Source: a virus (lineage: Duplodnaviria > Heunggongvirae > Uroviricota > Caudoviricetes). From it: DNA of 5,452 nucleotides. Shown piece after piece: positions 1 to 3,943 of the stretch. Below the pieces are notes generated by a model. It ran no database searches and had not been told where the DNA came from. It saw only the letters and a program-made list of their open reading frames with translations. Positions within the stretch are counted from its first letter, which is position 1. Each line of letters opens with the position of its first letter. The stretch lies in IMG/VR virus record IMGVR_UViG_2778261005_000009, one strand, 5' to 3'. A program made the position numbers and the translations under genes.

Positions 1-546
1 GAAAAACGAGTATTTTTAGTCATCCTGTTTACCTCTTTCTCAGGGAGTTTAGTCTCCAGGATTTCCGGGGCGGTTCACCTGGACGGCCTGAGCGAACCGA
101 TCGGGAAATTTTCGATGACTACTGTCTGGCAGCCGTCGCCGGATTTTCGACAACGGGCAGCAGTGTGGGGTATGGCTCTGCCTGAGCCGGAATTTACACC
201 TGCTGAGCTTGCCGCATTCCGGGATTACTGGATGGCGGAGGGGAAGGTTTTCACGCAGGTTCAGTGGGAGCAGAAATTTGCCCGCCACGTGCAGCACGTC
301 AGGGCACAGGTAAAACCAGTCAGCAAGGGGGGAAGCCATGCAGCATCAGGTGGCACGGCATCACGGGCAGTTCAGGAAATCCGGGCTGCACGCGAACAGT
401 GGGAACGTGACAACGGATTTATCAGCAACGGAAACGGCCTGGAAGCTGTGGGAGCTCATGGGGGAGGTGTATTCGAACCGCTGGACTCAGAAGAACGGGG
501 CCGCACCTTCGAAGCTCTGGATTGCCCAGATTGGTGCGATGACTGA
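1..546 (+). CDS. DnaT-like primosomal / replication protein, 5'-truncated (frame open from base 1)
   Basis: Frame 1 has no stop from base 1 to TGA at 544-546. The translation (..VHLDGLSEPIGKFSMTTVWQPSPDFRQRAAVWGMALPEPEFTPAELAAFRDYWMAEGKVFTQVQWEQKFAR..) matches the C-terminal domain of E. coli DnaT as I recall it (..[44 protein letters not shown]..). The similarity extends upstream of the ATG at 115, so the true start lies outside the window. The 3' boundary is uncertain because the ORF overlaps the P-like frame. Confidence 0.7.
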   Translation, partial: EKRVFLVILFTSFSGSLVSRISGAVHLDGLSEPIGKFSMTTVWQPSPDFRQRAAVWGMALPEPEFTPAELAAFRDYWMAEGKVFTQVQWEQKFARHVQHVRAQVKPVSKGGSHAASGGTASRAVQEIRAAREQWERDNGFISNGNGLEAVGAHGGGVFEPLDSEERGRTFEALDCPDWCDD

Positions 547-1000
547 ACAGCAAATCCGTCTGGTGTGCCGTCAGTGCATGGACCGCTGCCGGGCGGGTGA
601 AACGTGGCCCCCGGACCTGGCTGAGTTTGTTGCGCTGATTTCGGAGAGTGGGGCAAATCCATTTGGTCTTACGGTGGATGCCGTGATGGAAGAGTACCGG
701 CGCTGGCGCAATGAATCCTGGCGATACGACGGGAGTGATAAATACCCGTGGCCACAGCCTGTGCTGTACCACATCTGCCTCGAAATGCGTACCAGAGGGA
801 TTGAGCGCCAGATGACGCAAGGTGAGTTAAAACGACTTGCGGAACGGCAACTGACGAAATGGGCAAAGCATGTTGGTAACGGGATGAGTGTTCCGCCAGT
901 GCGACGACAACTGGAAGGGGCGAAACACCCGCAAGGGCCAACGCCAATTGAACGGCTGAAACAGGAATACGAACGCCGGAAGGCAGCTGGTTTTATTTGA
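458..1000 (+). CDS. Phage lambda P-like replication protein (DnaB helicase loader)
   Basis: Frame 2 ORF ending TGA 998-1000. The C-terminal two thirds resemble lambda P as recalled: DKYPWPQPVLYHI..GELKRLAERQL..VPPVRRQL versus lambda YPWKSNAHYWLV..AELRRKAADEL..IPEPVKQL, and WPPDLAEFVAL versus PFLPSPGQFVAW. Start is ambiguous: ATG 338 (G-rich SD, 209-nt overlap with the upstream gene), ATG 458 (GGAG 3 nt upstream, chosen as a compromise) or ATG 539 (8-nt overlap, no SD). Confidence 0.7.
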   Translation: MGEVYSNRWTQKNGAAPSKLWIAQIGAMTEQQIRLVCRQCMDRCRAGETWPPDLAEFVALISESGANPFGLTVDAVMEEYRRWRNESWRYDGSDKYPWPQPVLYHICLEMRTRGIERQMTQGELKRLAERQLTKWAKHVGNGMSVPPVRRQLEGAKHPQGPTPIERLKQEYERRKAAGFI

Positions 1001-1033
1001 ATCTGAGAAACGATTTTGTCGGAGGAAATATTA

Positions 1034-1750
1034 ATGGAAACCGTATTTGACGCACTGAAAGCACTGAAAAAAGCCTCTTCACAGGTAGTGGCATCGCGCC
1101 TTGGAATCAGCCGCGAAGATGCTGTCAACGAACTGTGGAAACTGAAGCGCCGTGGTGAAGCGGATAACAAGGGGTCGATGTGGTGGCTGACTCAGACTGG
1201 TGAAAGTGAACCAGTGTCACCGGTACCGAAAGTGACAGCGCAAATGCTGACTGAGGCGATTGAACATCATGGCCCACAAACGGCGGATGAGCTGGCACTG
1301 ATGTTCGGGATTACCTCCCGCCGGGCGAATTCATCACTGGCCATGGCAATCAGCAAAGGGCGTCTGATTCGCGTGAATCAGGGCGGTAAATTTCGGTACT
1401 GCATACCGGGCGCTGATTTACCGGCAGAGCCGAAAGCCGCATCCATAACGGAAACGGATGGTAAAGCCTTTCCTCAGCCAGCAGGTGTTGCGTTACCAGT
1501 CGGGGAAGCGGAAACACAGGAAGAAATAAAAACGGAAAGTGTGGCGGTCACAGTGCAGTCACAGCCGTCGTTCACCAGAAAGCATCCGGATGGTCTGATT
1601 TTACCATCGCTGCATGTGGCTAACCGCGAGCTGCGCCGGGCAAAAGGTCAGGTTCAGAAGTGGGAGCGAGTCTGCGCCGCGCTGCGGGAGCTGAACAAGT
1701 GCCGGGATATTCTCCGGGATATTACCGCCACCAGAGAACAGCAGCGGTGA
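1034..1750 (+). CDS. DUF1627-like prophage protein with two winged-helix-like repeats
   Basis: ATG 1034 preceded by GGAGG (1021-1025) at 8-nt spacing; stop TGA 1748-1750. The track's TTG start at 1016 lies upstream of the SD and is unlikely. Two internally similar segments ([36 protein letters not shown] and [40 protein letters not shown]) look like winged-helix units. The DUF1627 name is from memory of lambdoid prophage proteins. Confidence 0.75.
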
Positions 1751-3612: not shown

Positions 3613-3630
3613 TGCTGCGGGTGCTTGAGG
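3613..3630 (+). promoter_or_regulatory. 5' element of hok mRNA complementary to its 3' end (tac/fbi-like long-range pairing, 5' partner)
   Basis: tgctgcgggtgcttgagg (3613-3630) pairs antiparallel with cctcaacgcacccgcg (3993-4008): 6 bp, a one-nucleotide bulge (C3999), then 10 bp including one G-U. Confidence 0.45.
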
Positions 3631-3664
3631 CTATCTGCCTCGGGCATGAACACCAACGGCAGAT

Positions 3665-3739
3665 AGAGAAAAGCCCCAGTTAACATTACGCGTCCTGCAA
3701 GACGCCTAACATTAATCTGAGGCTCAATCTATGAACGGC
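3665..3739 (-). ncRNA. Putative Sok-like antisense RNA (type I antitoxin), about 75 nt
   Basis: Minus-strand sigma70-like promoter (below) would start transcription near + coordinate 3739. The transcript is antisense to the upstream in-frame ATG (3731) and its SD (GAGG 3719-3722). It ends in a terminator-like structure on the minus strand: outer stem ccucag/cugggg (3717-3722 with 3674-3679, one G-U), inner stem gcguc/gacgc (3690-3694 with 3701-3705), then U-tract cuuuucucu (+ 3665-3673). Ends are approximate. Confidence 0.4.
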
Positions 3740-3745
3740 AAATCT

Positions 3746-3774
3746 AGGTTAGCCTCTTACGTGCCGAAAGGCAA
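3746..3774 (-). promoter_or_regulatory. Candidate promoter of the Sok-like antisense RNA
   Basis: On the minus strand: -35 TTGCCT (+ coordinates 3774..3769), 17-nt spacer, -10 TAACCT (3751..3746). The -35 overlaps the hok SD region on the opposite strand. Confidence 0.35.
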
Positions 3775-3787
3775 GGAGAAGCAGGCT

Positions 3788-3943
3788 ATGAAGCAGCAAA
3801 AGGCGATGTTAATCGCCCTGATCGTCATCTGTTTAACCGTCATAGTGACGGCACTGGTAACGAGGAAAGACCTCTGCGAGGTGCGAATCCGAACCGGTCA
3901 GACGGAGGTCGCTGTCTTCGTAGACTACGAATCTGAGAAGTAA
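3788..3943 (+). CDS. hok: Hok/Gef-family type I toxin (51 aa membrane peptide)
   Basis: ATG 3788 preceded by AGGAG (3774-3778) at 9-nt spacing; stop TAA 3941-3943. Product MKQQKAMLIALIVICLTVIVTALVTRKDLCEVRIRTGQTEVAVFVDYESEK aligns along its length with plasmid R1 Hok ([52 protein letters not shown]) and is very close to chromosomal HokD/RelF as recalled. The track ORF 3731..3943 is an in-frame upstream extension (ATG 3731), possibly a mok-like leader reading frame. Confidence 0.9.
   Translation: MKQQKAMLIALIVICLTVIVTALVTRKDLCEVRIRTGQTEVAVFVDYESEK

Follow-up and report, generated by a model that had tools for sequence, protein, structure and literature searches.

A probable 209-nucleotide dual-coded junction between a phage replication initiator gene and a lambda-P-type helicase-loader gene

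A stretch of 5,452 nucleotides (nt) of tailed-phage DNA (Caudoviricetes; IMG/VR record IMGVR_UViG_2778261005_000009), called the window in the following, begins with part of a replication module in which the gene for a replication initiator is followed by the gene for a helicase loader of the lambda P family, and the two reading frames overlap. The explanation that accounts best for the comparative sequence data, with a probability of roughly 0.7, is that the initiator/loader junction is dual-coded over 209 nt, that the loader starts at the ATG at nt 338, and that the constraint on the overlap is divided between the two frames. The region from nt 77 to nt 1000 would then be the initiator/loader junction of the replication module of a lambdoid (Rac-like) prophage, and in intact phages both the initiator frame (frame 1, ending at nt 546) and the loader frame (frame 2) would be translated across the 209-nt overlap. 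The features on which the argument depends are the following.

77–546, plus strand: 3′ fragment of the initiator gene, comprising its last 156 codons and the stop codon, frame 1; a pseudogene here
109–309, plus strand: DnaT-type single-stranded DNA (ssDNA)-binding domain of the initiator (Pfam PF17948, E = 2e-17, 63.1 bits, cut-off 25)
322–340, plus strand: ribosome-binding site AAGGGGGG (322–329) and probable loader ATG (338–340), within a variable, predicted-disordered linker of the initiator
338–1000, plus strand: gene of the lambda-P-family helicase loader (Pfam PF06992), frame 2, 220 amino acids (aa) when read from ATG 338
338–436, plus strand: overlap part 1, initiator frame constrained, with the helix ASRAVQxIRxAREQW (nt 361–411); variability of 0.47, 0.41 and 0.585 at the first, second and third codon positions of frame 1
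437–546, plus strand: overlap part 2, loader frame dominant, encoding AWKLWELMGEVYSNRWTQKNGAAPSKLWIAQIGAM with three helices, while the last 36 residues of the initiator (EPLDxEER...DWxDD) ride along
458–460, plus strand: ATG of loader Met41, the start in many entries of 177–181 aa, probably an internal codon; A34, W35, L37 and W38 are conserved upstream of it
539–541, plus strand: ATG of loader Met68, the start in RefSeq and in the Prokaryotic Genome Annotation Pipeline (PGAP), probably an internal codon; Met in 21 of 29 loci
544–546, plus strand: TGA stop codon of the initiator, at a position that is conserved among loci

The overlap in related loci and the start of the loader

Frame 1 is open from the edge of the window to the TGA at 544–546. 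The out-of-frame overlap measures 209 nt from ATG 338 and 89 nt from ATG 458, and the frames and coordinates are as a preliminary description of this DNA had given them. That description had left two options, namely that one of the frames in 338–546 is probably non-coding, or that the region is a genuine dual-coding overlap. For a comparison, 37 loci were gathered, with one genome per species, and 29 non-redundant loci with normal architecture were kept. They span 17 named genera, including Escherichia, Salmonella, Klebsiella, Pectobacterium, Erwinia, Serratia, and Yersinia.

Both frames were found to be open across the overlap in all 29 loci, and in each of them the ATG of the loader frame lies 161–224 nt (median 212) upstream of the initiator stop codon. 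The openness of the loader frame is weakly informative, as its chance is about 0.7 per locus. The position of the upstream-frame stop codon relative to the W of the motif WPPDLAEF is -61, -58, -49 or -46 in 27 loci and -94 in the remaining two. A stop of the upstream gene before nt 340 in the relatives would have pointed to a local indel, and it occurred in none of the 29 loci; all of them stop at the equivalent of about 544–546. An indel or a sequencing error in the window was therefore excluded. The overlap goes far beyond chance because about 30 related loci of many genera have kept it. Taken together, the open frames and the conserved start and stop positions support a genuine dual-coding overlap and not a local accident, and they disagree with the option that one of the two frames is probably non-coding.

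Four loci had a different appearance. A frameshift within the overlap breaks the loader frame of L037 (Leclercia adecarboxylata NCTC13032) and of L040 (Ca. Symbiopectobacterium), and the conserved N-terminus of P lies in the phase of the initiator; both are probably pseudogenes or sequencing errors. L038 and L029, both from Erwinia spp., are solitary P-family genes without an initiator that reside beside host genes (a phosphotransferase system transporter and a ttcA-like gene). In these two loci the P open reading frame (ORF) is intact, and the former initiator frame carries stop codons.

The loader entries in public databases have at least four different start sites, resulting in proteins of 140, 153, 177–181, and 216–223 aa. 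Sequence comparison makes it likely that the gene starts at ATG 338 and encodes 220 aa. This assignment rests on the conservation of the ATG and its Shine-Dalgarno (SD) motif, on the scarcity of other possible starts, and on the collinearity with other P proteins. The three bases of ATG 338 are invariant in 27 of 27 aligned loci, while the initiator residues that surround them differ in about 80% of the pairs. A GGAGG-type motif, which has the form AAGGGGGG in the window, precedes the equivalent of this ATG by 5–8 nt in nearly all loci. Stop codons in the loader frame average 3.4 in the 300 nt before the equivalent of ATG 338, and none follows it. In 6 of the 29 loci, the equivalent of ATG 338 is the only ATG, GTG, or TTG that precedes the conserved AWxLW motif. 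A leader of about 35 residues is likewise present ahead of the first conserved helix in lambda P and in a sister P subfamily, and thus, a start at nt 338 gives a collinear protein. Initiation of the loader would then take place at a conserved SD-ATG element (322–340) that is situated in the disordered linker of the initiator, directly after its DnaT-type domain.

The N-terminal part of the loader contributes further evidence. The conservation of residues 34–68 (AWKLWELMGEVYSNRWTQKNGAAPSKLWIAQIGAM, nt 437–541) extends to homologues with only about 45–50% identity, and R48, W49, K52, N53, G54, P57, and W61 are nearly invariant in distant homologues. Across the 29 loci all four synonymous third bases occur at A34, L37, and P57, and the codons of W35 and W38 are fixed as TGG; selection on the other frame is therefore no explanation for the conservation. 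In the AlphaFold2 (AF2) model, residues 31–70 form helices with a predicted local distance difference test (pLDDT) score of 87–89, and residues 1–24 score below 50. The peptide LWELMGEVYSNR lies within loader residues 1–67.

A start at ATG 458 would give a protein of about 180 aa and an overlap of 89 nt, and ATG 338 would be unused. It is the annotated start in Salmonella, Klebsiella, Citrobacter, Brenneria, and Pectobacterium, and many NCBI entries have 177–181 aa. The respective Met41 is conserved in 28 of 29 loci, and loader residues 1–33 are free of protein-level constraint, the first 24 being modelled as disordered. Nevertheless, this start is unlikely. A34, W35, L37, and W38 are conserved upstream of it, with free third positions and a fixed TG pattern that frame 1 cannot explain. 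Locus L020 has Leu at position 41, and in protein P0101 the Met is shifted by one residue. Furthermore, the preceding GGGAG leaves a spacing of only 3 nt, and ATG 338 never varies, although the stretch around it does.

Constraint within the overlap

The variability at the three codon positions was used to determine which frame is constrained. In the DnaT-type domain of the initiator (nt 154–300) the values were 0.61 for the third, 0.42 for the first, and 0.40 for the second position. In overlap part 1 the initiator frame has a signature like the one seen over its DnaT domain, and therefore, this frame is regarded as clearly coding in 338–436. For the loader frame, codon-position variability across the aligned loci revealed no purifying selection in 338–436. 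In overlap part 2 the loader frame had pairwise variabilities of 0.32, 0.26, and 0.50 at its first, second, and third positions among the 29 loci, which is the pattern of a coding frame (third > first > second). The AF2 model of the initiator has a helix at residues 95–111, and its last approximately 40 residues are disordered.

Judged from these values, the constrained frame switches at about nt 437, and in the structural models the ordered part of each protein overlies the unconstrained part of the other. The stretch 338–436 would thus combine a conserved helix of the initiator tail with a dispensable and partly disordered leader of the loader, and the stretch 437–546 would combine the structured N-terminal helices of the loader with an acidic, predicted-disordered end of the initiator (EPLDxEER...DD). 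Codon-position-specific conservation across 338–546, which had been proposed as a check, accordingly showed the two frames to be unequally constrained, frame 1 in the first part and frame 2 after about nt 437.

The last part of the initiator frame was analyzed by three further approaches. First, no stop codon was present in the 108 nt before the initiator stop in any of the 29 loci, compared to a mean of 2.2 in the next 108 nt. When the loader codons were resampled synonymously, the initiator frame stayed open throughout part 2 with a frequency of about 0.22 per locus. Second, the codon choice of the loader was compared with baselines from the region that encodes only P. The variability of loader third positions was 0.50 in 437–546 versus 0.62 elsewhere in P, and at columns with conserved amino acids it was 0.30 versus 0.51. 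K52 is encoded by AAG in 26 of 29 loci (baseline 0.36, p = 2e-9), S46 by TCG in 15 of 17 TCN codons (baseline 0.33, p = 4e-6), and Q51 by CAG in 15 of 15 cases. Each of these codons yields a Glu in the initiator frame, while the neighbouring synonymous sites are saturated; the initiator motif EPLDxEER overlies the loader motif SNRWxxKNG. Third, the identity of the initiator frame in part 2 was 0.362, whereas the null of synonymous resampling gave 0.286. This excess of 0.076 (z = 12.7) compares with 0.011–0.041 (z 1.8–6.1) in control windows of P. The avoidance of stops, the biased codon choice, and the identity above the null indicate indirectly that the initiator frame in 437–546 is maintained.

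The same results bear on the idea that the 209-nt overlap joins two real genes, but that the initiator ends in an unselected read-through of 36 residues and its functional end is the helix around nt 411. That idea would account for the lack of an own codon signature of the initiator frame in 437–546 and for the modelled disorder of its last residues, and much of the conservation does follow automatically from P, as the null identity shows. It does not account for a frame that is open in every locus in spite of the low chance of each one, for the conserved position of the stop codon, or for Glu-giving loader codons that are nearly fixed amid saturated synonymous neighbours. Hence, we regard an unselected read-through as improbable.

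A loader start at ATG 539, as in RefSeq, would result in a protein of 153 aa, an overlap of 8 nt (ATGACTGA), and coupling by termination-reinitiation, and frame 2 would be open further upstream by accident. This is the start that PGAP assigns in phage Rac-SA53 and in more than 1000 E. coli genomes, and the usual junction in lambda O/P, as in the sister module of locus L041, is of the ATGA type. However, frame-2 residues 34–67 are conserved to Serratia and Yersinia with substitutions of the coding type, Met68 occurs only in the 21 loci mentioned above, three confident AF2 helices upstream of it would be lost, and the Pfam match to P begins 10 residues before it. ATG 539 is therefore very improbable as the start of the gene, and on the comparative evidence both the RefSeq start at 539 (153 aa) and the start at 458 (180 aa) are judged to be too short, so that most database annotations of the junction would be incorrect. 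An additional short isoform of P could be produced from ATG 539 by termination-reinitiation. A programmed +1 ribosomal frameshift near nt 437 that yields an initiator-P fusion would agree with the switch of the constrained frame at that site and with a PHROG profile (15931, 482 positions) that matches both proteins end to end, but it is hardly credible: inspection by eye found no slippery or shift-prone motif in 400–460, the segment 415–436 just upstream of the site varies in length across the loci, a frameshift would have no need of the invariant SD-ATG located 100 nt before the site or of the 110 nt over which frame 1 stays open after it, and the one database fusion that was examined (P0106) is the product of an in-frame deletion.

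Several points weigh against the divided, dual-coded junction with a loader start at nt 338. The initiator frame lacks a codon signature of its own in 437–546, and its third position, with a value of 0.25, is the least variable one. The p-values for codon choice assume independent loci, an assumption that their phylogenetic relationship violates; common descent as the cause of the codon bias is disfavoured by the saturated synonymous sites nearby. The first 33 codons of the loader are without protein-level constraint, and their openness is subject to the high chance per locus given above. Met41 is so well conserved that it could serve as a second start. Lastly, the solitary P genes L038 and L029 were rejected as non-overlapping controls; they are prophage remnants and hence weak, and not clean controls.

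The initiator, its tail, and the loader

The preliminary description had called the upstream gene DnaT-like and not lambda O-like. It does contain a DnaT-type domain, which was modelled by AF2 with pLDDT values of 83–90, but it is not a homologue of DnaT as such, and some relatives carry a true lambda O N-terminal domain. The NCBIfam equivalog model for DnaT, PRK02854, gave 94.5 bits, below its cut-off of 201, and aligned only with profile positions 82–156 of 179; the gene is therefore assigned to a phage initiator with a DnaT-type domain, not to DnaT. The full-length initiator matches PHROGs described as 'replication initiation protein'. In summary, the upstream gene encodes a mosaic phage replication initiator with a DnaT-type domain in the middle. 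The observation that its frame continues about 50 codons beyond the end of E. coli DnaT was borne out, since 76 residues follow the last DnaT-aligned position in the initiator versus 23 in DnaT, about 53 extra codons. The C-terminal end of the initiator reads ...FEPLDSEERGRTFEALDCPDWCDD, and its C-terminal peptide is TFEALDCPDWCDD.

The pairing of a gene with a DnaT domain and a P-like loader was likewise confirmed by the matches to PF17948 and PF06992. Phage_lambda_P (PF06992) was found in loader residues 58–187 (E = 1.3e-15, 57.9 bits, cut-off 26), and PHROG 109, 'P-like helicase loader', matched with E = 1.5e-62. A profile of loader homologues (alignment A1) matched solved structures of lambda P at its residues 98–203 (8v9t_V, E = 1.2e-6; 8v9s_A, 2.6e-6). 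The gene lies directly 3′ of a replication-initiator gene in the window and in 29 further loci. By these similarities the downstream gene is a lambda-P-family helicase loader, and its predicted function is the loading of DnaB.

The C-terminal tail of the initiator (residues 290–347) is not restricted to one type of initiator. The same tail, always overlapping this subfamily of P, was found behind the following N-terminal or central parts.

Most loci: DnaT-type central domain
L019: lambda O N-terminal domain (Phage_rep_O)
L020 and L024: DUF1376
L023, L028 and L035: unclassified N-terminal domains without a Pfam match

In locus L041 an initiator with a DnaT domain lacks the tail, the P protein belongs to a different subfamily, and the overlap is 4 nt. 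The tail thus follows unlike initiators and is missing in L041, where another P is present, and therefore, it travels with P and not with the rest of the initiator. In phage lambda, the C-terminal part of O binds P. By analogy, we infer that the tail is a module that recruits this particular P to its initiator. The tail and P would be interleaved in one stretch of DNA, and a matched pair would thereby stay together in mosaic recombination.

Part 2 of the tail was probably overprinted on an N-terminus of P that already existed. A more specific proposal, which we put forward as tentative and as having a minor share of the probability, is that the last approximately 36 residues of the initiator were born de novo by overprinting of the P helices and now form an acidic dock (EPLDxEER...DD) onto P or onto the P-DnaB complex. 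If this were true, one stretch of 110 nt would encode parts of both interaction partners in two frames, and the pair of initiator tail and loader would be inseparable in mosaic phage recombination.

Some database entries join the two genes or join P to other sequences. PHROG 15931 is a single profile that matches the whole initiator (positions 1–347) as well as the whole loader of 220 aa (positions 279–482), and it seems that the clustering merged both families via the overlap or via fusion entries. The database proteins P0106, P0032, and P0037 fuse P to neighbours. P0106 results from an in-frame deletion after which the beginning of the DnaT domain continues into P at ...ESGANPFG, P0032 is P joined to DUF1627, and the N-terminus of P0037 is unrelated; all three look like products of prophage decay or assembly artefacts. 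PHROG 15931 and P0106 were therefore rejected as proof of an initiator-P fusion, the former because its profile seems to be merged and the latter because of the deletion.

Context of the window and relation to known systems

The window is 100% identical to DNA of E. coli O157:H7 strain 2571, where it is located in a Rac-like lambdoid prophage. Its first nucleotides belong to a mobile element.

1–76, minus strand: terminal 76 nt of the IS3-family insertion sequence (IS) IS1203/IS629 (RefSeq annotation of the 100%-identical record)

The coding sequence (CDS) of the IS1203/IS629 transposase ends at nt 23 on the minus strand, and intact relatives of the initiator align only from nt 77 onward. Positions 1–76 thus lie outside of the DnaT-like gene, a point that the preliminary description had missed along with the RefSeq start at ATG 539. 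In other O157 strains the intact initiator has 347 aa; the module is intact, for example, in strain TR01 (RefSeq locus tags EEL45_RS10785/10780). In strain 2571, the sequence 5′ of IS1203/IS629 (L001, 1–3076) contains a DinI-like gene and fragments of IS256 and IS66 in place of the 5′ part of the initiator, and therefore, the left arm of the prophage has been deleted or rearranged. Because nt 1–76 are the end of an IS and the sequence beyond it stems from other elements, the initiator gene is a 5′-truncated pseudogene here. The junction between the IS and the initiator (nt 76/77) is common to only two records among the matches listed, from strains 2571 and F6321.

The intact O157 relative L002 has direct repeats of the TGTCACGAC type with a spacing of 10 nt in two clusters (2554–2599 and 2835–2891) inside the initiator gene. 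Plausibly, they are origin iterons, as in lambda O. In L002 the repeats are located upstream of the part that is kept in the window, and they have been lost from the window strain. The insertion of IS1203 and a rearrangement would have removed the 5′ part of the initiator, including these putative origin repeats. With that part lost, the replication module of the window strain would be defective and its initiator frame a pseudogene.

Scans of window positions 1–1100 with Rfam and for promoters and terminators yielded nothing relevant. Further downstream, a hok/sok type I toxin-antitoxin locus is present at 3619–3943, with a match to Rfam sok (105.6 bits, 3619–3793) and a Hok/Gef CDS at 3788–3943; a longer in-frame ORF begins at 3731.

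The junction resembles the lambda O-P module in several respects. In both cases an initiator is followed by a P-family loader (PF06992; profile match to 8v9t/8v9s), the initiator gene (here in intact relatives) contains direct repeats that may be origin iterons, the structure is mosaic, and the C-terminal part of the initiator travels with P. Relative L019 even has a true Phage_rep_O N-terminal domain before this tail. In contrast, O and P of lambda overlap by 4 nt, whereas the genes described here overlap out of frame by 161–224 nt, and the initiator has a DnaT-type domain and ends in another tail where lambda O has its C-terminal domain. A protein with a DnaT C-terminal motif that is encoded beside a P-family protein has been described as the DopC/DopE type and its phage relatives (Brezellec et al. 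2017, PMC5509034), although an overlap is not mentioned in that paper. E. coli DnaT shares the ssDNA-binding domain of about 70 residues (PF17948), but the protein described here lacks the N-terminal half of DnaT and has the N-terminus of a phage initiator instead.

Long same-strand overprinted gene pairs of phages include phiX174 D/E and A/B/K as well as lambda Rz/Rz1. Like these, the initiator/loader junction uses one stretch of DNA in two frames, with a constrained part lying over a predicted-disordered or unconstrained part of the partner, and such overlaps tend to be missed or trimmed by annotation pipelines. It differs from them in not being an embedded gene; it is a partial tail-to-head junction of replication partners, with a dominance of the frames that switches midway. 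The literature search brought up the DnaT_C/P pairing, but no account of a conserved overlap of initiator and loader that measures about 210 nt. Both this pairing and long overprinted overlaps in phages are already known.

The initiator/loader junction occurs in more than 1250 complete E. coli genomes. The RefSeq form of the loader would lack three conserved N-terminal helices, which matters whenever the protein is cloned or modelled. More generally, the junction would represent a long overlap on one strand that is deeply conserved and whose constraint passes halfway from one frame to the other. The portable C-terminal tail of otherwise unrelated initiators is a likely determinant of the choice of the loader, and it would extend the work on the specificity of lambda O and P.

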